This document shows, piece after piece, positions 6,197 to 52,001 of a stretch of DNA of 64,000 nt (position 1 is its first letter; each line of letters begins with the position of its first letter). The notes beneath the pieces are model-generated. The model made no database searches and was not told the origin of the DNA. It worked only from the letters and a program-made list of their open reading frames with translations. Made by a program: the position numbers and the translations under genes. The stretch covers positions 84,756 through 148,755 of the forward strand of contig CAVXLS010000009.1 of assembly GCA_963762675.1 (NCBI GenBank), in the 5' to 3' direction. This DNA comes from an uncultured Thermoleophilia bacterium. GTDB taxonomy: Bacteria > Actinomycetota > Thermoleophilia > Gaiellales > Gaiellaceae.

Positions 6197-7296
6197 GTCT
6201 GGTTGTCTGACAAGGGCTTCGAGGGTACCACCGCCCCGGGAGGCCGTTCAAGGACGGCGCCGAGCCGCTCGGCGACCCAGTCGGCGACGAGCGTCCGCGA
6301 GCGGTAGGGGACGTTGTTCGCGACGTGGACGCCCTCCTCGAACACGACGAGGTCGTTCGGGCCGGCGAGCGCCGCCGCGGTGCGCTCCGCCTGCTCGGGC
6401 GGCGAGGCCGGGTCGCAGCCGCCGTACACCTGCAGCACGGGGACGCGGACACGCTCCGCGTAGCCGGAGACGGTGATCGCGTCCTGCACCGCCCCCGGGT
6501 CGTCGCCGAGGTACTGGTGGAGCCCCGACTGCGAGAGCGGATCCTGCGTCGGGAAGCGGCCGGCGGGGCTGTACCAGCTGCTCATCGACACCGCGGCCCG
6601 CACCCGCTCGTCCACCGCCGCCGCACGGATCGCGAACAACCCGCCGTAGGAGATGCCGACGACGGCGACCCGCTCCGCGTCGAGGTCGGGCCGCGCGAGG
6701 AGGTGGTCGAGCACCGCCACGACGGCCGTCTCCTCGTCCGTGCGGAGCTTCAGGCGGAAGCTGACGAGCCCGTGCCCGGGGCCGTCGAACGCGAACGCGG
6801 CGACGCCACGCCGGACCATGTGCTCGGCGAGGTCGTACAGCTCCTCCTTCGTCGAGTCGGCCCCCGGCAGCAGCACCGCGAGCGGCGGCCGCTCGACGCC
6901 GTGCGGCTTCCGCAGGTAGCCGGGCAGCGTCGTCCCCTCGAACGGCACGTCGACGAGCTCGAGCGGCGGGTCGACGAGCGGCGCCGCCTTCGCCAGCGCC
7001 CGCTCGCCCGCCTCGAGCGCGGCGCGAAACGGGTCGACGTCCTCCACGGAGACGAACGTGGCCCAGTGGTAGAAGAGCGCGGCGCGGACGTACGCCTCGC
7101 CGGCCGTCAGCCGCCGGCCGCGGGCGAGCGCCTCGTCGCCGAGCTCCACGTGCCGCTCGGCCCACCGGCACCACGTGGGCAGCCAGTCCTCCCAGCGCTC
7201 GACCTCGCCGCGAATCTGCTCGAAGTCCCAGTACGGGACGTGCGACGCGATCCGCTGGGTGAACATGCGGTACATCGACTCCAGGAAATCCGTCAC
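6193..7296 (-). CDS. Alpha/beta-hydrolase (FrsA / 2,6-dihydroxypseudooxynicotine-hydrolase-like)
   Basis: Nucleophile elbow VVGISYGG and an overall alpha/beta-fold pattern. The GTG at 7296 overlaps the upstream stop (GTGA); an alternative ATG lies 8 codons downstream. Confidence 0.75.
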   Translation of the reverse strand: MTDFLESMYRMFTQRIASHVPYWDFEQIRGEVERWEDWLPTWCRWAERHVELGDEALARGRRLTAGEAYVRAALFYHWATFVSVEDVDPFRAALEAGERALAKAAPLVDPPLELVDVPFEGTTLPGYLRKPHGVERPPLAVLLPGADSTKEELYDLAEHMVRRGVAAFAFDGPGHGLVSFRLKLRTDEETAVVAVLDHLLARPDLDAERVAVVGISYGGLFAIRAAAVDERVRAAVSMSSWYSPAGRFPTQDPLSQSGLHQYLGDDPGAVQDAITVSGYAERVRVPVLQVYGGCDPASPPEQAERTAAALAGPNDLVVFEEGVHVANNVPYRSRTLVADWVAERLGAVLERPPGAVVPSKPLSDNQT

Positions 7297-8477
7297 GAGC
7301 CTTCCCCTCTCTCGCGCAGGCGGCGTTCCGCCTCGCGTGCTCCGACCTTGAGCAGCATCAGCGCGTTCGTGCCGTTCCCGTGCGTCAGCGTCAGCGCGTC
7401 GCGCGCGAGCTTCTCGGCGGGCCAGCCCGACATGACGCCGCGCCCGCCAAAGAGCGCCACGACGCGGCGCGTGATGTCGATCGCCGCCTCGGTCGCGTGC
7501 ACGCGTACGCCCCACGCGAGCGCCGGGTCGAAGTCGCCGCCGCGCGCCAGCTCGCGCGCGACGCGATAGACGTGGCTGCGCACCGCGTCGAGCTGCACGC
7601 GCAGCGAGCCGAGCTCGTGCGCGACGAGCTGGTGCTGCCAGATCGGCACGCCGCCCTGGACGCGGTCGAGCGAGAAGTCGAGCGCCGCTTCGTACGCCTC
7701 GCGCGCGACGCCGAGCGCCGTGGCCGCATTCGTCACGTTGGGACCGATCAGCACCGTGAGCTGGGCCGGCAGCCCCTTGCCGAGCTCGCCGACGACCTGG
7801 TCCTCGCCGACGCGGACGCCGTCGAGGATCACGTCCGCCTGCGGAGAGGCGCGCTGGCCGATCTTCTCGTAGAGCGGCCCGGTGGAGAGGCCCGGCGCAC
7901 CGGCCGGGACGATGAAATGCGTCAACCCCTCCGGCGCACGCGCGAGCACGAAGTAGACGGAGGCGAGGCCGGCGTTCGTGATCATCGCCTTGCGCCCGTC
8001 GAGCACCCAGCCGTCGCCGTCGCGGCAGGCGTTGACGGCGATCCCGTGCCCGTTCTCCTGGAAGGGGAGCGCGTTGTCGCTGCCGGCGGCCGGCTCGGTG
8101 ACGGCGCTGGCGGGCGCGAAGCGGTCGTCGTTCGCGATCCGATCGAGCACCCAGTCGCGCCAGCGCGGCGTGAGCCGGTCGATCAGCCGTCCGAACCGCC
8201 AGAAGTGGCGGAAGAAGTAACAGACACCGAGGTCGCCGGCCGCGAGCTCCTCGGCAACGGCGCAGAGCGTGACGGCGTCCGCTCCCGCGCCGCCGTACTC
8301 GGGACGGAGCGGCAGCGTCTTCAGGCCCAGGCGCGCGCCCGGCTCGATCACGTCCCAGGGGAACGCGTCGAGCGAGCGCATCCCGTCGAGCCGCGCCCGT
8401 TCCGGGACGACGCGCTCCCGCACGTACGCGCGCGTGGCGGCGACGAGGTCGGCCTGCTCTTCGACGAGCTCGCTCAT
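7293..8477 (-). CDS. Acyl-CoA dehydrogenase family protein
   Basis: MSELVEEQADLVAATRAYVRERV...TEPAAGSDNA...GRKAMITNAG...FGGRGVMSGWPAEKLARDA is the ACAD three-domain pattern. The usual YEGT catalytic-Glu position reads THGNGT. Confidence 0.85.
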   Translation of the reverse strand: MSELVEEQADLVAATRAYVRERVVPERARLDGMRSLDAFPWDVIEPGARLGLKTLPLRPEYGGAGADAVTLCAVAEELAAGDLGVCYFFRHFWRFGRLIDRLTPRWRDWVLDRIANDDRFAPASAVTEPAAGSDNALPFQENGHGIAVNACRDGDGWVLDGRKAMITNAGLASVYFVLARAPEGLTHFIVPAGAPGLSTGPLYEKIGQRASPQADVILDGVRVGEDQVVGELGKGLPAQLTVLIGPNVTNAATALGVAREAYEAALDFSLDRVQGGVPIWQHQLVAHELGSLRVQLDAVRSHVYRVARELARGGDFDPALAWGVRVHATEAAIDITRRVVALFGGRGVMSGWPAEKLARDALTLTHGNGTNALMLLKVGAREAERRLRERGEGS

Positions 8478-17068: not shown

Positions 17069-18959
17069 GTGAGCGTCCAGGAAGGAAACCGCTTCGCCGG
17101 GCGAACCGCGTGGGCCCGCAGCATCGAGACACCGCTGCGCAGCTTCCTGCGAACGGAGACGGGCAGCGCCGTCGTCCTGCTCTCCGGCGACGGTCGCCGC
17201 ACTCGTCTGGGTGAACGCGCACTCCTCGTCCTACGAGTCGGTGTGGCAGACGCAGCTCTCGATCCGGCTCGGCGGCGCGCACATCTCGCAGGACCTGCGC
17301 GGCTGGCTGAACAGCGGCCTGATGGCGTTCTTCTTCTTCGTCGTCGGCCTCGAGGCGCGGCGCGAGTTCGACCGCGGGGAGCTGCGCGACAGGCGCCGGC
17401 TTGCGTTGCCGGTGGCGGCGGGGATCGGCGGGATGGTCGTGCCCGTGGCGATCTACCTGGCGGCGAACGCCGGCCGTCCCTCCGCGCACGGTTGGGGCAC
17501 GGCGATGTCGACGGACACGGCGTTCGCGCTCGGGACGCTCGCGCTCGTGGGGCCCCGCTTCCCCGACCGGCTGCGGGCGTTCATGCTCACCGTCGCCGTC
17601 GTCGACGACCTCGCGGCGCTGCTCGTCATCGCGACGGCGTACACGAGCGGCGTCTCCGTCGTCCCGCTCGTCTCGGCCGGCGGCCTGCTCGTGGTCGTCG
17701 TGGCGCTCGTGCGGGCCCGGGTACAGCGCGGCCCCGTCTACGCCGTGCTCGGCGTCTCGGTCTGGGTCGCCCTCTACAAGTCGGGCGTCGATCCGGTCGT
17801 GACCGGTCTCGTGCTCGGGCTGCTGACGGCCGCCCGGCCGGCCGCCCGGGGCGACCTCGAGCGGGCGAGCAACCTCTTCCGGCTCTTCCGCGAGCAGCCC
17901 ACGCCCGAGCTCGAGCGCTCGGCCCGGGAAGGACTCCGGCTCTCGATCTCGCCCAACGAGCGCCTGCAGCAGCTCTACCACCCGTGGACGAGCTACGTGA
18001 TCGTTCCGCTCTTCGCGCTCGCGAACGCGGGCGTCTCGCTGCGCGGCGGCTTCCTCGCGCACGCCTACGGATCGCCCATCACCCTGGGGATCCTCTTCGG
18101 CTACCTGGCCGGCAAGCCTGCGGGGATCGTCGGGGCGGCCGCTCTCGTCACCCGCCTCAGCCGGGGGCGCGTGCGACCGCCCGTCGGCTGGGTCGCCGTC
18201 GCGGGCGGCGGCACGATCGCGGGCATCGGCTTCACGGTCTCGCTCCTGATCGCGAGCCTCGCCTTCCGCGGCAACGGCCTCGAAGAGGCGAAGGTCGGCG
18301 TGCTCAGCGGCGCGCTCTGCTCGGCGCTCGTCACCTGGCTGGTCTTCCGGGCCACCTCGCTGCTGCCGGTGCGGTTCAGGCTCCGCGCGCTCGTCGGGAA
18401 GACGGAGCCGATCGTCGACCTCGCTGCGCCGGTCGATCCCGAGCGCGACCACGTCCGCGGGCCGGCGGACGCATCGGTGACGCTCGTCGAGTACGGCGAC
18501 TTCGAGTGCCCGTACTGCGGCCGGGCCGAGAGCGTCGTCCGCAAGCTCCTCGCCGAGGCCGGCGACGTGCGCTACGTCTGGCGCCACCTGCCCCTGACCG
18601 ACGTCCATCCGCGCGCCGAGCTCGCCGCCGAGGCCGCCGAGGCCGCGGCGGCGCAGGGCCGCTTCTGGGACTTCCACGACCTCCTGCTCGCCCACCAGGA
18701 CGAGCTCGCGCCGAAGCACCTGCTCGGGTACGCGGAGCAGCTCGGGCTCGACGTCGAGCGCTTCGAGAACGACCTGCGCTCGCACGTGGGCGCGGCGCGC
18801 GTCGCGGAGGACGTCGACAGCGCCGACCTCAGCGGCGTCTCCGGAACTCCGACCTTCTTCGTCAACGAACTGCGCCACTACGGCGCCTACGACATCGACT
18901 CGCTGACGAGGGCGGTACGCCTCGCGCGCGTCCGCGTGCTCGCCGCCGCGGCCAGATAG
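17069..18959 (+). pseudogene. nhaA: Na+/H+ antiporter NhaA fused to a C-terminal DsbA-like thioredoxin domain. One +1 frame break near 17186 as assembled.
   Basis: The NhaA N-terminus ([18 protein letters not shown]) is in the frame of the GTG at 17069. The rest ([22 protein letters not shown]...GLEARREF...) is in the 17211 frame. The C-terminal 190 aa carry a thioredoxin CPYC motif ([14 protein letters not shown]). Confidence 0.8.
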
Positions 18960-19000
18960 GGTTGCCAGCGCCGGAAGCGAGCGAGAACGGGAGCCCCACC

Positions 19001-20263
19001 GTGCCTGACGAGACCCTCAGCATTCGAGACAACCGCACCGGGAGCGAGTACGAGGTGCCGATCGTCGACGGCACGATCCGCGCCACCGACCTGCGCCAGA
19101 TCGCGCTCACGTCGTATGACCCGGCGTTTCTGAACACGGCGTCGTGCCGGAGCGCGATCACCTACATCGACGGCGACGCGGGCATCCTGCGCTACCGCGG
19201 CTACCCGATCGAGCAGGTGGCGGAGCGGGCGAGCTTCCTCGAGACGGCCTGGCTCCTGCTCGAGGGCGAGCTGCCGACCGTCGCCGAGCTCCGCGCCTGG
19301 GAGGAGGAGGTCAGGACGCACACGTACGTCCACCGGAACGTGACGAAGTTCCTGGAGGGCTTCCGCTACGACGCGCACCCGATGGGGATGCTGCTCGGCG
19401 CGGTCAGCGCGCTGTCGACCTTCTACCCCGACGCGAAGAACATCGCCGACCCGGAGAGCCGCCGCCTCCAGCGCGTGCGCCTGATCGCGAAGCTCCCGAC
19501 GATCGCGGCCTTCATCTTCCGCCACGCGCACGGGCTGCCGTACGTCTTCCCGCGGAACGACCTCGACTACATCGGCAACTTCGTGAACATGACCTTCGAG
19601 ATCGGCGGCCGGCACGAGCCGAATCCCGTGCTGCAGCGCGCGCTCGAGATCCTGCTCATCCTCCACGCCGACCACGAGCAGAACTGCTCGACGAACGCGG
19701 TTCGCGGCGTCGGCTCGTCGCACGTCGATCCGTTCTCGGCCGTGTCGGCGGGGATCGCGGCTCTCTACGGCCCGCTGCACGGCGGCGCGAACGAGGCGGT
19801 GCTGCGCATGCTCGACGAGATCGACCACGTCGAGAACGTGCCCGACTTCATCGAAGGCGTGAAGGCGGGCCGCGGCCTCCTGATGGGCTTCGGCCACCGC
19901 GTCTACAAGAGCTACGACCCGCGCGCGAAGCTGATCAAGCAAGTCGCCGACGACGTCTTCGAGCAGACCGGGCTCAACCCGAAGCTCCAGATCGCGCTCG
20001 AGCTGGAGCGCATCGCGCTCGAGGACGAGTACTTCGTCTCGCGCAGGCTCTACCCGAACGTCGACTTCTACTCCGGGCTCATCTACCAGGCGATGGGCTA
20101 TCCGACCGACTACTTCACGGTGCTGTTCGCGCTCGGGCGTCTGCCCGGCTGGATCGCACAGTGGGAAGAGATGCTCGGCGACTCCGAGCAGAAGATCGCC
20201 CGGCCGCGGCAGGTCTACGTCGGCTCGCCCGAGCGCGAGTTCGTCGCGCTCGAGCACCGCTAA
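19001..20263 (+). CDS. gltA: Citrate synthase
   Basis: VPDETLSIRDNRTGSEYEVPI...YRGYPIEQ...LILHADHEQNCSTN...GPLHGGANE...GFGHRVYK...NVDFYSG are classic type II citrate synthase motifs. The GTG at 19001 is preceded by GGGAG. Confidence 0.92.
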   Translation: MPDETLSIRDNRTGSEYEVPIVDGTIRATDLRQIALTSYDPAFLNTASCRSAITYIDGDAGILRYRGYPIEQVAERASFLETAWLLLEGELPTVAELRAWEEEVRTHTYVHRNVTKFLEGFRYDAHPMGMLLGAVSALSTFYPDAKNIADPESRRLQRVRLIAKLPTIAAFIFRHAHGLPYVFPRNDLDYIGNFVNMTFEIGGRHEPNPVLQRALEILLILHADHEQNCSTNAVRGVGSSHVDPFSAVSAGIAALYGPLHGGANEAVLRMLDEIDHVENVPDFIEGVKAGRGLLMGFGHRVYKSYDPRAKLIKQVADDVFEQTGLNPKLQIALELERIALEDEYFVSRRLYPNVDFYSGLIYQAMGYPTDYFTVLFALGRLPGWIAQWEEMLGDSEQKIARPRQVYVGSPEREFVALEHR

Positions 20264-20267
20264 CGAC

Positions 20268-20721
20268 GTGGGGGAACCCCTGGTTCCCCCACGTGCCCCC
20301 TCCTCTAGCACGGGGAAACCGTGGTTCCCCGTGGACCCCCTCCTTCCCGCTCGCCGAGTCGAGCTGCAGTGGGCGCTGCGGGGAGAGCGCGGTCTCCCCT
20401 GCGCGCGCGACCGCGGAGCCTCCTGCTTCCAGAGAGGAAGACGCGTCTCCTGCGAGAGGCGCTGCGTCAAAGCCGGAGGCGCCCTACGAGGCGTCCCCGC
20501 CGACGTTGGACCGCCTGCGGCCAACGTCGGCTGGGACGCATCTGGTTGCGCCTCCGGCTTTCGCAGCGCCTGGTGGCAAGAGAAGGTTTACCCCTCTCGG
20601 AGATCCGCAGCCTTCCGCCGCGCGGAGGGGAGACCGCGCTCTCCCCGGAGCGCCCACCAGACGGTCTACCTTACGGCCGAGCGCAGAGGAGGGGGCCCGG
20701 GGGAACCAGGGGTTCCCCGTG
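20268..20721. repeat. Nested-palindrome, MITE-like intergenic element (copy A) ending in hairpin-plus-C-tail units
   Basis: Units at 20268-20306 and 20309-20347 (direct) and 20685-20721 (inverted). Inner 31-nt inverted repeat 20369-20399 / 20627-20657 (30/31). Central hairpin 20469-20561 with perfect 14-, 7- and 10-bp stems. All symmetry levels centre near 20515. Confidence 0.8.
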
Positions 20722-20780
20722 CTCGTGGGATTGTGGTGTTCCCCGATTCGCGGGCGGGCGGCGCCTTGCAGCGTTGTGGG

Positions 20781-21956
20781 GTGCGCCGGCCAGCCCTCGA
20801 CCTCGACCGTCGGCCGATTCTCGTCTTCTGGGAGACGACGAAGGCGTGCGGGCTCGCGTGTCGTCACTGCCGGGCCGAGGCCGTCGCGGCATCCGCACCG
20901 GGGGAGCTCACCGACCCGGAGGCCGGGGCCTTCCTCGACTCGCTCGCCGGCTTCGGCTCCCCGCGCCCCGTGCTCGTCGCGACGGGAGGCGACGTGCTCG
21001 AGCGCCGCGACCTCGACGCGCTGCTCGACCGCGCGGCCACGCTGCGCATTCCGGTCGCGCTCGCGCCGAGCGTCACGCCCCTGCTCACCGACGAGCGGGT
21101 CGCGGCCATGCGCGCGGCCGGCGTGAAGGTGGCTTCGATCAGCCTCGACGGCGCGTCGGCGTCGACACACGAGCGGATCCGCGGCGTCGCCGGCCACCAC
21201 GCGGCGACGCTCGCCGCGATCCGGCGGCTGCGGCGCCACGGGATCGCAGTGCAGGTGAACACGGTCGTCATGCGGGAGACGGTCGACGAGTTGCCGACGA
21301 TCCTGCGCCTCGCACGCGATGCGGGCGCCTCGATCTGGGAGCTGTTCTTCCTCGTCCAGGTCGGCCGCGGGCGCGCGCTCGGGGAGCTCACGCCGGAGGA
21401 GAACGAGGACGTCTGCCACTTCCTCGCCGACGCGTCGCGCTACGGACTCGTCGTCCGCACGGTCGAGGCGCCCTTCTTCCGCCGGGTCGTGGCGCAGCAG
21501 GAGGACGGCGAGACCGCCCCGGCCGGGGCTCTCTACCGGCGCCTCAACGGCCGGCTGCGGCAGGAGCTCGGCGAGCCCTCCGGCCGCTCGAAAGCGCAGA
21601 CGAAGGGCACCCGCGACGGCCGAGGCATCGTCTTCGTCGCACACGACGGCGCCGTCCACCCCTCCGGCTTCCTGCCGCTCCCCCTCGGCAACGTGCGCGA
21701 CGAGACGCTCGTGCGGATCTACCGCGAGCACCCGCTCCTGCGCCGCATCCGCGCCGCCGAGTTCTCGGGAGCGTGTGGCGTCTGCCCGTACCGGGAGCTC
21801 TGCGGCGGCTCGCGAGCACGGGCGTTCGCGGCGACCGGCGACCCGCTCGCGGCCGACCCGGCGTGCGCCTTCAGGCCGCCCGCGCGCCGTGGCGGTGCTC
21901 GGCCGGCGGCGCCGTCGAGTCGCGCAGGACGAGCCGCGTCGCCAGCTCCACCCTGA
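20781..21956 (+). CDS. Radical SAM / SPASM-domain protein (NirJ/AhbD-like; possibly the TIGR04053 family, from memory)
   Basis: RPILVFWETTKACGLACRHCRAEA (CxxxCxxC cluster) and a C-terminal Cys-rich SPASM region (FSGACGVCPYRELCGGSRARAF). The start is uncertain: GTG at 20781 chosen, and the ORF stays open back into the repeat. Confidence 0.8.
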   Translation: MRRPALDLDRRPILVFWETTKACGLACRHCRAEAVAASAPGELTDPEAGAFLDSLAGFGSPRPVLVATGGDVLERRDLDALLDRAATLRIPVALAPSVTPLLTDERVAAMRAAGVKVASISLDGASASTHERIRGVAGHHAATLAAIRRLRRHGIAVQVNTVVMRETVDELPTILRLARDAGASIWELFFLVQVGRGRALGELTPEENEDVCHFLADASRYGLVVRTVEAPFFRRVVAQQEDGETAPAGALYRRLNGRLRQELGEPSGRSKAQTKGTRDGRGIVFVAHDGAVHPSGFLPLPLGNVRDETLVRIYREHPLLRRIRAAEFSGACGVCPYRELCGGSRARAFAATGDPLAADPACAFRPPARRGGARPAAPSSRAGRAASPAPP

Positions 21957-22927
21957 GCGCGTCGAGCGGGCGGCCGTCGAGCAGGCGGGTCAGCAGCCCG
22001 ACCGCGAGGCGGGCCATCTCGCCGAGGGGCTGGCGCACCGTCGTCAGCGCAGGCGTGACGAGAGGCGCGTGCTCGGCGTCGTCGAAGCCGACGACGGAGA
22101 TGTCCCGGGGAAGGGCGTATCCGAGCTCCCGTGCGCACTGACACGCGCCCACGGCCAGGTTGTCGTTGAAGGCGAGGACGGCGGTCGGCGGATCCGGCAG
22201 CGACAGCAGACGGGCTGCGCCTGTCCGGCCGCCCTCGACCTCGAAGTCCCCCTCGACGACGAGGGCGGGGTCGGGCCGGATGCCGGCCTCGACGAGCGCC
22301 GCGCGATAGCCGCCGAGGCGCTCCTCGGTCGCGCACCAGCCGGCAGGACCGGTGATCGCCCCGATGCGCCGGTGGCCGAGCCCGAGCAGATGCATGACCG
22401 CGGCTCCGGCCCCGGACGCGTTCGCCGGCGACACCGAGGGAATCCCCACGGGGACCGGCGTCTTCGGGTCGAGGACGACGAACGGGTAGCCACGCTTCTG
22501 CAGCGCCAGCAGCTCCGACTCCGACTCGGAGGGAAGGATGAGGACGGCGCCTTCCGTCGTCCCGTGCATCAGGCAGCTCCAGGAGGCTCACCTCCCGGTC
22601 GCGCTCGTGCCGGGTCGGACAGATGACCGCGCGGAGGTCGTGGTCGTACAGCGTGTCGATGATCGCGTCGGCCAGCACGGCGAAGTACGACGACTGGACC
22701 TTCGGGAGCGTGACCCCGACGAGGCCGGTGCGGCCGCCGGACAGGGCACGCGCGCTGCGGTTCGTCGAGTACCCCAGATCCCGGATCGCCCGGAGAGCCC
22801 GCTCGCGGGTCGCGGGGGCGACGACGGCCGGCCGGTTGAGCACGCGCGAGATCGTCGCCGCCGACACGCCGGCCGCGCGGGCGACGTCGCGCATCGTCGG
22901 AGAGCGCGCCTGCAACCGGTTACCCAT
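21871..22927 (-). pseudogene. LacI-family transcriptional regulator. One +1 frame break near 22572 as assembled.
   Basis: The HTH N-terminus (PTMRDVARAAGVSAATISRVLN...YSTNRSARALS) is in one frame. The sugar-binding core (LMHGTTEGAVLILPSE...VLAFNDNLAVGA...SVVGFDD...TTVRQP) is in the next. Confidence 0.85.
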
Positions 22928-27854: not shown

Positions 27855-27880
27855 GCGTCGCTCGCGTACGGCTCGCTCCC

Positions 27881-27915
27881 GTGGGGGCACCTCCCGGTTC
27901 CCCCACGCCCCCTCC
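27881..27915 (+). repeat. Solo hairpin-plus-C-tail repeat unit (degenerate) between the two permease genes
   Basis: gtgggggcacctcccggttcccccacgccccctcc has the same GTGGGGG...GGTTCCCCCAC arms and CCCCCTCC tail as the units at 20268 and 51681. It starts 27 nt after the permease stop codon. Confidence 0.65.
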
Positions 27916-32111: not shown

Positions 32112-33229
32112 CCGGCTCGCCTCCGCTCGAGCGCACGGGCCCTCGCCGGCCCCGCGCTGCGCCGTCCCTCGTCGGCGAGCCGTTCGGCAGGACGCCGGAC
32201 GGGCGAGAGGTCGAGCGCTTCACGCTCACCGCGGGGGGCGACCTCACGGTCAGGGTCGCCACCTACGGGGCGATCGTGCAGGAGCTCCTGGCGCCAGACC
32301 GGACGGGCGCGACCGCGAGCGTCGTGCTCGGCTTCCCTCGCCTGGACGACTACGTGGAGCGGAACACGCCGTACCTCGGCGCGATCGTGGGCCGCTACGC
32401 CAACCGGATCGCCGGCGCCGCCTTCACCCTGGACGGCGTCCGCCACCGCCTCGAGGCGAACGAGGGGCCGCACTGCCTCCACGGCGGCAGGCGAGGCTTC
32501 GACAAGCGCCTGTGGCGGGTCGCGAGGACGCACCGGACGCGCGACGAGGCCACCCTCGTCCTCCGCCACGCGAGCCCCGACGGCGAGGAGGGGTTCCCGG
32601 GCGCGGTCGTCGTCGAGGTCGCGTACACGCTCTCCCGTGCCGACTCGCTGCGGATCGACTACCGGGCGACCACCGACCGGCCGACCGTCCTGAACCTGAC
32701 GAGTCACGTCTACTGGCAGCTCGCCGGCGAGGGCTCGGGCTCGATCGACGACCAGCGGCTCACGGTCGCCGCCTCCCGGTATCTCCCCGTCGACCGCGCC
32801 ATGATCCCGACCGGAGAGGTGGCTCCGGTCGCCGGGACGCCGTTCGACTTCACGACGCCGGCCCGGATAGGCGGCCGGCTGCGCGACCGGTCGGAGCAGC
32901 TCGCGACGGCGCACGGCTACGACCACCACTTCGTCCTCGACCGGGCCGACCCGGTCTCGCGCCCGCCGGCCGTCCGCCTCGACGACCCCGGGAGCGGCCG
33001 CCGGCTCGAGCTCGCGACGACGGAGCCCGGCGTCCAGGTGTACACCGGCAACCACCTCGACGGGTCGCTCGCGGGGACGAGCGGCCGCCTCTACCGGCAG
33101 GGCGACGGGATCGCGCTGGAGACGCAGCACTGCCCGGACTCCCCGAATCGCCCCGAGCTCCCGTCGACCGTGCTCCGGCCGGGCCGCGTGTTCGCGTCGA
33201 CCACCGCGTACCGGCTCTCGGTCTTCTGA
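32108..33229 (+). CDS. galM: Aldose 1-epimerase (galactose mutarotase family)
   Basis: ...GAIVGRYANRIAGAAFTLDG...EANEGPHCLHGG..GFDKRLW...EEGFPG...NLTSHVYW...GYDHHFVL...ETQHCPDSPN. The GTG at 32108 overlaps the bglB stop (GTGA). Confidence 0.88.
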   Translation: MTGSPPLERTGPRRPRAAPSLVGEPFGRTPDGREVERFTLTAGGDLTVRVATYGAIVQELLAPDRTGATASVVLGFPRLDDYVERNTPYLGAIVGRYANRIAGAAFTLDGVRHRLEANEGPHCLHGGRRGFDKRLWRVARTHRTRDEATLVLRHASPDGEEGFPGAVVVEVAYTLSRADSLRIDYRATTDRPTVLNLTSHVYWQLAGEGSGSIDDQRLTVAASRYLPVDRAMIPTGEVAPVAGTPFDFTTPARIGGRLRDRSEQLATAHGYDHHFVLDRADPVSRPPAVRLDDPGSGRRLELATTEPGVQVYTGNHLDGSLAGTSGRLYRQGDGIALETQHCPDSPNRPELPSTVLRPGRVFASTTAYRLSVF

Positions 33230-33230
33230 C

Positions 33231-33265
33231 GTGGGCGATCCATGGTTCCCCCACGGACCCCCTCC
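33231..33265 (+). repeat. Solo hairpin-plus-C-tail repeat unit (degenerate) immediately after the mutarotase stop codon
   Basis: gtgggcgatccatggttcccccacggaccccctcc shares the right arm GGTTCCCCCAC and the CCCCCTCC tail with the other units. It starts 2 nt after the TGA and ends 12 nt before the GH94 ATG. Confidence 0.6.
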
Positions 33266-51027: not shown

Positions 51028-51738
51028 ATGGCCGAAGCGGCACTCGAGCGCCTGCGAGAGGCGATCATCCTCGGCGAGCTGACGCCGGGAACGCCGCTCC
51101 GGCTGGAGGATCTCGCACGCTCGCTCGGGATGAGCATCTCGCCGATCCGGGAGGCGGTCCGGCAGCTCGAGGCGCTCGGGCTCGCGGAGCACGTCCCGCA
51201 CCACGGCGCGAAGGTGATGGGGCTCGAGGTGGAGGAGCTGCGAGAGCTGTTCTCGATCCGCCTGGCGCTCGAGACGATGGCCGTGCGGCGCGCCGCGGGG
51301 CTGTTCGAGGCTGCAGACGAGGCACGCGGCCGGGAGGAGCTGGCCGCGTTCGACGCCGCACGACGCGGCGGCGACATGCGGGCGGCCGTCCGCTCGCACA
51401 CGTCGTTCCACTTCACCCTCTACGAGGCGGCGCGCTCCGCCTGGCTGCTACGCCTGATCCGGCCGTCGTGGGACAGCTGCGAGCGCTACCGCCCGGTTCT
51501 GCTCGGGGCAACCGGCGCGTTGCAGGATCGACACGCCGAGCTCGACGTCGAGCTCCTGGAGGCGTGCGTCGCGCGCGACCCCGAGCGTGCGGCGGCAGCT
51601 CTGCACGCCCATCTCGAGCTCGCGACCGACATCTACACGGTCGAGCTCGCGGGGCGCAGCGATCTTCGCATTCTGAGAGCGTGGGGGAACCCCTGGTTCC
51701 CCCACGTGCCCCCTCCTCTGCGTCGGCGACGAGGTTGA
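51028..51738 (+). CDS. GntR-family transcriptional regulator (FadR/FCD type). The last 18 codons are encoded by the repeat unit.
   Basis: MAEAALERLREAIILGELTPGTPLRLEDLARSLGMSISPIREAVRQLEALGL is a winged helix-turn-helix, followed by an FCD-like helical domain. The ORF reads through 51681-51719 (WGNPWFPHVPPPL...). Confidence 0.82.
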   Translation: MAEAALERLREAIILGELTPGTPLRLEDLARSLGMSISPIREAVRQLEALGLAEHVPHHGAKVMGLEVEELRELFSIRLALETMAVRRAAGLFEAADEARGREELAAFDAARRGGDMRAAVRSHTSFHFTLYEAARSAWLLRLIRPSWDSCERYRPVLLGATGALQDRHAELDVELLEACVARDPERAAAALHAHLELATDIYTVELAGRSDLRILRAWGNPWFPHVPPPLRRRRG

Positions 51739-51980
51739 TCGTTGGTGGGCGCTCCGGGGAGAGCGCGGTCTCCCCTGCGCGCGCGACCGTCTGCGTCTCC
51801 CAGAAGGACGCGGGGCGAAGGAAGGCGCTGCGTCGCCGGTGGCGCCCTACGGGCGTCTCCGCCGACGTGGGTCCGCCTGCGGCCAACGTCGCTGACGCAT
51901 CTGGTTGGCCTCCGGCTGTTGGGTCTGTGGCGGGCGACGGTCTACCCCTCAGGGAATCGCGGGCCTTCCGTCGCGCGGAG
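51681..51980. repeat. Second, right-truncated copy (copy B) of the nested-palindrome element
   Basis: 51681-51719 is identical (39/39) to 20268-20306. 51745-51775 is identical to the reverse complement of 20627-20657. The central hairpin region (about 51835-51917) aligns to 20469-20561 with substitutions. Similarity ends near 51980, with no right inverted arms. Confidence 0.8.
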
Positions 51981-52001
51981 TCCCCCGTGCGAACGAGGCG
52001 C

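Follow-up and report, generated by a model that had tools for sequence, protein, structure and literature searches.

The spacer between the citrate synthase gene gltA and a radical-SAM gene of an uncultured Thermoleophilia bacterium (contig CAVXLS010000009.1) harbours a nested palindrome, located at positions 20266-20721 of the 64,000-nucleotide stretch of DNA analysed here (hereafter the window), and this palindrome belongs, as we hold with high confidence, to a dispersed, insertion-polymorphic and non-coding repeat family. The superfamily is apparently undescribed and was seen only in Gaiellales and related Thermoleophilia metagenome-assembled genomes (MAGs). The best explanation overall, in which our confidence is moderate, is that of a non-autonomous, hairpin-dependent mobile element. 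An earlier note, made from the sequence of the window alone, had proposed either a terminal-inverted-repeat element or a structured RNA; the former proposal is sustained insofar as the elements are dispersed insertions with sharp ends, though not in the strict sense of a miniature inverted-repeat transposable element (MITE), since no target-site duplication was detected, while the latter is weakened, as far as selection at the RNA level only is concerned, by the scarcity of G.U pairs.

Architecture of the window element

The palindrome was confirmed both in the sequence and by an inverted-repeat search, and all its levels share, as the earlier note had it, a common centre of symmetry at ~20513-20515. 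The left terminal module begins with a hairpin designated T1 (CACGGGGAAACC-G-TGGTTCCCCGTG, 20309-20333) followed by the C-rich tail GACCCCCTCCTTCC, the two together (20309-20347) being homologous to the left element ends of several of the loci described below (L016, L048, L004 and others); the module continues with an arm (20369-20407) containing a second hairpin designated H2 (GGGGAGA-GCGCGG-TCTCCCC, 20380-20399). The right terminal module is the inverted counterpart, with the H2′ arm at 20619-20657 (hairpin GGGGAGA-CCGCGC-TCTCCCC, 20627-20646) and, at 20685-20718, the G-rich tail AGAGGAGGGGGCCCG joined to the inverted hairpin T1′ (GGGGAACC-AGG-GGTTCCCC, 20700-20718). The H2 and H2′ arms constitute inverted repeat I1, in which the 31-nt middle repeat reported previously is recognized, although at a greater length, its arms (20369-20407 and 20619-20657) being 39 nt long and 95% complementary. 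The outer hairpin units are likewise present where they had been described and are linked by inverted repeats I3-I6, the outer arms spanning 38 nt (20302-20339 with 20691-20728) with 82% complementarity. The outer hairpins conform to the pattern GGGGAA(A)CC..GGTTCCCC (20271-20289, 20312-20330 and 20700-20718), each with a C-rich tail that is G-rich on the inverted side, and this pattern occurs four times in the window vs 0.03 expected. Between the two modules lies the central hairpin domain (20457-20571; stems of 10, 14, 7 and 11 bp; apex at ~20515; inverted repeats I2 and I16), which is specific to the window-type family; the inner hairpin (20469-20561) has the three perfect stems attributed to it and is extended by a further 10-bp stem (20457-20466 with 20562-20571).

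This architecture far exceeds what chance would produce. Folded as RNA, 20264-20724 reaches -346.6 kcal/mol, compared with -226.9 ± 5.8 kcal/mol for shuffled sequences (z = -20.5), and the other of the two foldings run yielded z = -11.8; folding, one of the checks proposed in the earlier note, thus indicates an extreme predicted stability. Furthermore, this copy is the most symmetrical seen of the superfamily and the only one to carry the exact H2 20-mer on both arms.

The description of the spacer as a single concentric unit holds for the nested core and has to be amended at both margins. On the left, the hairpin unit at 20266-20306 is an extra tandem copy of a stand-alone module, consisting of a perfect 13-bp palindromic hairpin (ACGTGGGGGAACC-CCT-GGTTCCCCCACGT, 20266-20294) and of the C-rich tail GCCCCCTCCTCT, identical at 40 out of 40 positions to window 51680-51719. 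On the right, the position of the terminal hairpin is already taken by a hairpin on its own in the closest relative, a single T1 being present in L071 exactly at the position orthologous to the right T1 of the window. An apparent fourth hairpin copy (20721-20745) was excluded from the element, as it represents ancestral radical-SAM upstream sequence that is kept in element-free relatives.

A dispersed family of structured repeats

The number of copies, which the earlier note had recommended to establish, was obtained by querying a genome collection with the exact pattern of the 20-nt H2 hairpin GGGGAGAGCGCGGTCTCCCC; the loci (L numbers) are 8-kb pieces around the pattern matches and amount to 557 kb in all. 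The 20-mer is found at 70 loci in ~20 species-level MAGs, and those MAGs that bear a lineage label are all Gaiellales, Gaiellaceae, Thermoleophilia or Actinomycetes. A single 2.1-Mb long-read MAG accounts for 14 of the 70 loci and a single short-read MAG for 18, the matches in short-read assemblies being often located at contig ends. Across the loci and the window the exact 20-mer is present in 73 copies. One match in an unclassified "bacterium" MAG (L008, 1863-1882) has no flanking homology to the family and is probably fortuitous or unrelated.

Throughout the superfamily the elements measure 350-560 nt and are non-coding, the indels that distinguish copies having lengths not divisible by three. 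In the long-read MAG, ten copies of 470-530 nt can be aligned end to end, and unique flanking sequence begins immediately outside the terminal hairpin, so that the element has defined ends, another property that the earlier note had singled out for verification. A second family, present in other MAGs, has a different linking sequence and the same plan. This plan entails two inverted end modules of ~100-130 bp each, found in all full-length copies and composed of the perfect terminal palindrome T1, a short C-rich tail and the H2 hairpin, and a centre made of several further hairpins (e.g., CGTAAC..GTTACG) that differs between families. T1 exists in interchangeable flavours (GGGGGAACC.., AGCTCGCG.. 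and GGGCGAAGAGC..), TAGC preceding only the AGCTCGCG-type hairpins, and in H2 the GCGCGG loop and the GAGA/TCTC upper stem are conserved and the lower stem covaries. The two ends are non-equivalent: in 10 out of 10 aligned copies, as well as in the family-2 alignment, the invariant H2 occupies the same intrinsic side and H2′, on the other side, has a variable stem. Shorter versions and solo end modules exist. The window-type centre is found elsewhere only in a second copy within the window and in the metagenome contigs L098 and L090, the sole true relatives among the 33 matches of a metagenome scan with a central 19-mer, the rest being due to chance.

The T1 unit occurs also by itself. Three tandem T1-plus-tail units with a spacing of ~71 nt are present in L065 (2198-2377), an arrangement which shows that local amplification of this small unit by itself is possible. 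The complement of the C-rich tail, GAAGGAGGGGG, is found at the other end of full elements.

Occupied and empty sites

An all-against-all comparison of the loci identified at least six orthologous sites at which one genome carries an element and another does not, and the search for empty sites suggested in the earlier note thereby establishes that the elements are insertions. The empty sites include an 11-nt operon spacer (L010, occupied in L004), spacers of 37 nt (L034) and 86 nt (L003) between convergent genes, both occupied in L057, and spacers of 13 nt (L030, where L015 has half an element), 14 nt (L063, occupied in L013) and, at a different site at which L063 is occupied and L013 is empty, 6-9 nt; in L045 (occupied in L046) the spacer is at most ~30 nt, its exact length being unsettled as the end of the convergent gene differs. 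The elements lie within a few nucleotides of stop codons, with the stop codon placed 0-6 nt before T1, and the shortness of the empty spacers implies that surviving insertions would be near stop codons even without targeting. In 45 of 67 cases the end entered by the upstream gene is the H2-invariant one, and copies are found in both orientations relative to the neighbouring genes.

One site 3' of a conserved gene was encountered in four states, namely empty (L013, 6433-6441), occupied by either of two distinct family-2 elements (L063, 6862-7272; L003, ~7260-7500) and occupied by a window-type solo module (L034, 4795-4939). The coexistence of these states suggests a hot spot or the replacement of one element by another. 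The terminal hairpins of the two family-2 elements are not the same, and directly beside the site there is a native palindrome, CTTTCGCGCGAAAG.

On the other hand, the target-site duplications whose presence the earlier note had proposed to verify did not emerge: no flanking direct repeat above the shuffled expectation was detected in 17 of 18 elements, and none was visible by eye at the four empty/occupied junctions inspected in detail. It is because of this result that the element does not qualify as a strict MITE. Among the 18, the solo module of L034 (4780-4960) alone has a flanking direct repeat, which consists of ~21 nt of the 3' end of the upstream gene and includes a new stop codon. 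Likewise, neither a conserved motif nor a fixed tetranucleotide was found in the flanks of the inspected copies and junctions.

Hairpin covariation and constraint

Covariation was analysed on 36 distinct H2′ hairpins that had not been selected by the search pattern, only the top three pairs being constrained by the filter. Pairing was found in 92.6% of the cells, as opposed to 71.3% in column shuffles and 40-47% with slid partners, and both sides change in 10 of the 12 pairs. The left and right H2 stems of one and the same element differ, yet each is self-complementary, which argues that the constraint acts on hairpin formation within each arm and not on the similarity of double-stranded ends. 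In an RNAalifold analysis of the ten full-length copies, T1, H2′, T1′ and two central hairpins hold most of the compensatory changes, whereas most of the predicted long-range helices show no variation or are disrupted, even though single sequences still fold as rods. Of the structured RNA envisaged in the earlier note, for which covariation was the intended check, the local hairpins are therefore supported and the long rod is not.

The composition of the stems is nearly pure Watson-Crick. In family-2-type stems 255 of 264 cells (96.6%) are Watson-Crick, with 2 G.T and 2 A.C, and the arm-to-arm mismatches, read on the top strand, comprise 80 G.T vs 122 A.C, so that there is no wobble excess; indeed, the search for a strand-specific wobble bias in arm-to-arm pairs and local stems gave no clear RNA signature. 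This pattern fits a constraint on both DNA strands or a correction by template switching, and fits RNA-only selection less well.

The rate of divergence points to constraint in at least one case. The orthologous elements of L005 and L027 have an identity of 92.6%, which rises to 96.7% when the swapped terminal hairpin is disregarded, vs 81% at third codon positions. Their right terminal hairpins (L005, 4166-4215; L027, 830-880) are of different flavours, one being GCGCGAAGAGC..GCTCTTCGCGC and the other GCTCGCGAGGCC..GGCCTCGCGAGC; the terminal hairpin behaves as an exchangeable cassette. In three loci the stop codon falls in the T1 loop (L006, ~630-660; L047, ~2590-2620; L028, ~1645-1675), and in these loci synonymous changes in the coding 5' arm of the hairpin are matched in the non-coding 3' arm. 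In these comparisons it is the end module that shows constraint most clearly, and the constraint is not a general one.

Proposed mechanism and the search for a partner

In our best reading, the logic of the element would be closer to that of REPINs than to that of a classical MITE, and a hairpin-dependent, duplication-free mechanism is put forward here tentatively. The element would be non-autonomous, the enzyme being supplied in trans, and this enzyme would read extruded or single-stranded DNA hairpins instead of a double-stranded inverted repeat, following a logic like that of the REPIN/RAYT or IS200/IS605 (HUH-type) systems, which are also duplication-free; after insertion, the terminal hairpins would be kept by compensatory change. 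Furthermore, the terminal hairpins probably act as 3'-end stem-loops or insulators for the neighbouring genes, a role that would explain why some orthologous copies evolve slower than synonymous sites.

Several facts weigh against these proposals. The two H2 hairpins of an element are inverted, unlike the ends of classical IS200/IS605, which have the same orientation. One end type reads TA|GCTCGCG...CGCGAGC|TA and fits a TA duplication of the IS630/mariner type, and the empty and occupied genomes are only ~80% identical in their flanks, so that a duplication of 2-3 bp could have decayed. Template-switch correction of quasi-palindromes during replication can, with no selection involved, produce perfect stems that differ by several seemingly "compensatory" bases, and the orthologous element of L006 and L047 is 73.9% identical vs 78.5% at third positions, which means that constraint is not general. 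The putative terminator or insulator role receives no support from a consensus terminator scan, there being no U-tract: no site was found in 20000-21000, where the hairpins precede a C-rich and not a T-rich tract, and it is the lack of a U-tract in the hairpins that accounts for this null result. Judging from the hairpins, a terminator-like or stabiliser role that dispenses with a U-tract may nevertheless be envisaged. Finally, no mobilising gene was identified in the 8-kb pieces, a sample in which a single-copy partner located elsewhere would be missed.

The search for such a partner took several routes. The ten proteins encoded beside the window copies have housekeeping-type Pfam domains or none, in keeping with the earlier remark that no transposase or integrase lies nearby; within the 8-kb pieces of the 70 loci homology never extends beyond ~520 nt, leaving no transposase-sized attachment; and a tblastn search with an IS200 TnpA query sequence gave no match in the 557 kb of locus pieces. 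No match was obtained either when the element was compared by blastn with plasmid and phage records or the H2 20-mer with viral contigs. Two candidates were discarded: L017, which had the appearance of an autonomous 3-kb element, contains two inward-facing ends that belong to two separate short elements, and the ~2.2-kb insert of L033 (3020-5280) is a lower-GC, IS1595/ISXO2-like fragment that interrupts an element, intact at the orthologous site of L025; judged from its sequence, this insert encodes what looks like a fragment of an IS1595/ISXO2-type transposase. Group II intron, retron, integron attC, CRISPR and uptake sequence were also rejected, since their defining features are absent; as to attC, neither an integrase nor a cassette array was found among the ten neighbouring proteins scanned. 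GTTAC-type motifs occur only inside the central hairpins.

As for known RNAs, no Rfam 15 match was obtained in the window at the gathering score, as anticipated in the earlier note, and in 18 related loci the same score returned only an unrelated signal recognition particle RNA, a permissive scan of the spacer adding only sub-threshold miRNA-like hairpins. With no Rfam, plasmid or phage match and no paper on repeats of this kind in Gaiella or Thermoleophilia found in the searchable literature, the earlier impression that this is not a described family is supported.

Alternative explanations

The element could be a classical MITE, i.e., an internally deleted DDE transposon (e.g., of the IS630/Tc1-mariner type) moved in trans by cut-and-paste through its double-stranded terminal inverted repeats, with a target duplication that is TA or eroded. 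Size, lack of coding capacity, inverted end modules of ~100 bp, multiplicity of copies and insertion polymorphism all fit, and the AGCTCGCG-type ends are TA-bounded on both sides, the left TA being that of the upstream TAG stop in 16 cases, a TA/TAG pattern that a TA-targeting element would give in a genome of 72% GC. We nonetheless consider this explanation doubtful, because one TGA|GCTCGCG end misfits a TA target, the window-type and CAVSIO-type ends have neither TA nor a conserved flank, 17 of 18 elements lack a flanking direct repeat and no transposase-bearing relative is found in the 70 loci, and because stems that covary inside each arm and differ between the left and the right side are unexpected for a protein site on double-stranded DNA.

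A second alternative, which we judge quite unlikely, sees in the element primarily a functional structured RNA, either a large non-coding RNA or a cis-acting element of the 3' untranslated region or of the intercistronic space, whose hairpins would be kept for RNA folding, processing (e.g., by RNase III) or protein binding, with copies arising by duplication and mobility being secondary. The extreme predicted folding (both z-scores), the strong covariation of the local stems, the orthologous pair conserved above the synonymous rate, the preferential entry of the upstream gene into the H2-invariant end, the stop codon just before T1 and the non-equivalence of the two ends are in its favour; it is opposed by the lack of an Rfam match at either threshold, by the nearly pure Watson-Crick stems without excess of G.U over A.C, atypical for RNA selection, by the little compensatory support for the long-range rod, by consensus scans that found neither a sigma-70-type promoter-like site nor a U-tract terminator and by the occurrence of copies in both orientations relative to their neighbours.

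Finally, it is scarcely credible that the palindrome was generated locally by the host, with terminator hairpins duplicated and inverted in place by slippage or template switching and neither mobility nor family being involved, for although perfect palindromes can result from template switching, and although the leftmost T1 unit is a tandem duplicate and T1 tandem arrays exist elsewhere (e.g., the three copies of L065), a purely local origin is excluded by the dispersion of homologous elements, which have the same internal order at many unrelated loci in ~20 species, recur 31 kb away in the window and are missing from empty orthologous sites.

Flanking genes and other copies in the window

The identities previously proposed for the two flanking genes were borne out by translation, database homologues and Pfam. 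Citrate synthase gltA (19001-20263, forward strand) ends with a TAA stop (20261-20263) 2 nt before the first hairpin; its product is 100% identical to a 420-aa database protein with PF00285 and 84-94% identical to its best database homologues, the few of these that are lineage-named being all Gaiellaceae or Thermoleophilia. The downstream radical-SAM gene (20781-21956, forward strand; PF04055) has an uncertain start, GTG at 20781 being more likely than ~20733. The sequence GTGGTGTTCCCCGATTCGCG (20733-20752), outside the repeat, is also conserved in L071 and L074, in front of the radical-SAM gene, and is a possible candidate for a 5'-untranslated-region or promoter-proximal motif.

The closest relatives by gltA are L071 and L072 (94%) and L074 (90%), and in all three the gltA/radical-SAM interval (window 20264-20780 compared with L071 3785-4790 and L074 3767-4991) contains a gene for a Big_1-like product of 264-267 aa, probably secreted, and no core element; the lineage of the window is without this gene and the repeat element occupies its place. 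Other relatives have a different synteny at this site and tiny spacers. Very long spurious open reading frames (window 17069-22141) cross the spacer and the real gene boundaries and are to be regarded as artefacts, stop codons being rare at the ~72% G+C of the window; automated gene prediction could place false proteins on such elements.

A blast of the spacer against the window revealed a second, right-truncated copy (51680-51985, forward strand), which sits between convergent GntR/FCD and amine-oxidase genes, 31 kb from the first. It comprises T1 and tail (51680-51719), the H2 arm (51745-51789) and a centre (51823-51917) that is 88% identical to that of the first copy, the middle arm matching at 44 of 45 positions, and is without the right arm H2′ and the terminal hairpin T1′. 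Two isolated T1 hairpins with the tail CCCCCTCC are also present on the forward strand, one between tandem genes (27880-27915) and the other, degenerate, directly after a TGA stop and ending 14 nt before the next ATG (33228-33265). The C-rich tail after T1 (CCCCCTCCT.., at 20295-20306, 20334-20347, 27907-27915 and 33254-33262) resembles the anti-Shine-Dalgarno; the tails of the isolated units lie 10-25 nt upstream of the ribosome-binding site of the next gene, with which, to judge from their sequence, they could pair.

Implications

Gaiellales are abundant soil actinobacteria of which few have been cultured, and the elements described here widen the range of REP/REPIN/MITE-like DNA beyond Proteobacteria. 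Their position inside operon spacers of 6-37 nt makes an effect on transcript ends and gene coupling likely. In practical terms, the invariant 20-mer and the GCGCGG loop provide a handle for finding the mobilising enzyme, and the elements, which break short-read assemblies, are useful as markers for the comparison of MAGs at the strain level.

A more far-reaching and, in our estimate, unlikely scenario is that Gaiellales possess a hairpin-reading system of their own, HUH/RAYT-like or based on a wholly different enzyme, which would move "giant REPIN" elements of ~500 bp without duplication, these having been domesticated as two-sided 3'-end cassettes. If this were true, the cassettes would consist of an exchangeable terminal hairpin, an anti-Shine-Dalgarno-like tail and an H2 protein-binding hairpin, would influence where transcripts end and how operons are organized in very compact genomes of high GC content, and would amount to a novel class of structured mobile DNA with functions in the DNA as well as in the RNA.

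Comparison with known systems

The systems with which the element can be compared share with it some features and differ in others. Like the REP/REPIN-RAYT systems of Proteobacteria (HUH, Y1), the Gaiellales elements are non-coding intergenic palindromes located just after genes, their mobile unit is an inverted doublet that can be folded into one long hairpin, insertion is not accompanied by a detectable target-site duplication and the hairpin structure is maintained; moreover, as in REP and BIME sequences, the small hairpin units (here T1) are found also alone, in tandem, in inverted pairs or in mosaic arrays. Unlike REPINs, however, they are 350-560 nt long instead of ~70-110 nt, i.e., five to ten times longer, and have a conserved multi-hairpin centre and two hairpin types per end. 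There is no conserved head of the GTAG/GTGG type, the bases outside the GGGGGAACC core being variable and pairing mutually, the sampled 8-kb pieces (557 kb) revealed no RAYT gene and the host is an actinobacterial order, a full-text search having found no paper that joins REPIN, RAYT and Actinobacteria.

With the IS200/IS605-derived elements (PATEs) the Gaiellales elements have in common hairpin-defined ends, no need for DDE-type inverted repeats and no target duplication, and a single-strand DNA logic would explain the selection for hairpins. The ends of IS200/IS605 are hairpins having the same orientation on one strand, and insertion takes place 3' of a fixed tetra- or pentanucleotide. Here, by contrast, H2 and H2′ are inverted, the loop on the top strand being GCGCGG in the left hairpin and CCGCGC in the right one, there is no left-flank motif and the 557 kb yielded no match resembling TnpA.

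The large structured RNAs HEARO, GOLLD, ROOL and OLE resemble the element in being several hundred nt long, in having many conserved hairpins and in being sometimes multi-copy or associated with mobile DNA. The Gaiellales element differs from them in that it has no Rfam match, and its palindromic symmetry, insertion polymorphism and few G.U pairs set it apart from HEARO-type RNAs and point to constraints at the DNA level.

Bacterial MITEs, such as Correia/CREE of Neisseria, ERIC/IRU, RUP and Nezha, are also small, non-coding, multi-copy and intergenic, have terminal inverted repeats and insertion polymorphism and can form long stem-loops in transcripts. These MITEs have short, defined terminal inverted repeats, a target duplication, which is TA in Correia, RUP and Nezha, and, where known, a cognate insertion sequence (IS). 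In the Gaiellales element, on the other hand, neither a duplication nor, within the 8-kb pieces, a cognate IS was found, the stems covary within each arm and the terminal hairpin is exchangeable between orthologous copies.

For every family considered, the element failed a defining test, whether strict MITE, REP head, IS200/IS605 ends, Rfam or canonical terminator. From the features compared above, the element would appear to be most like REPIN/BIME and, secondarily, like co-transcribed MITEs such as Correia.

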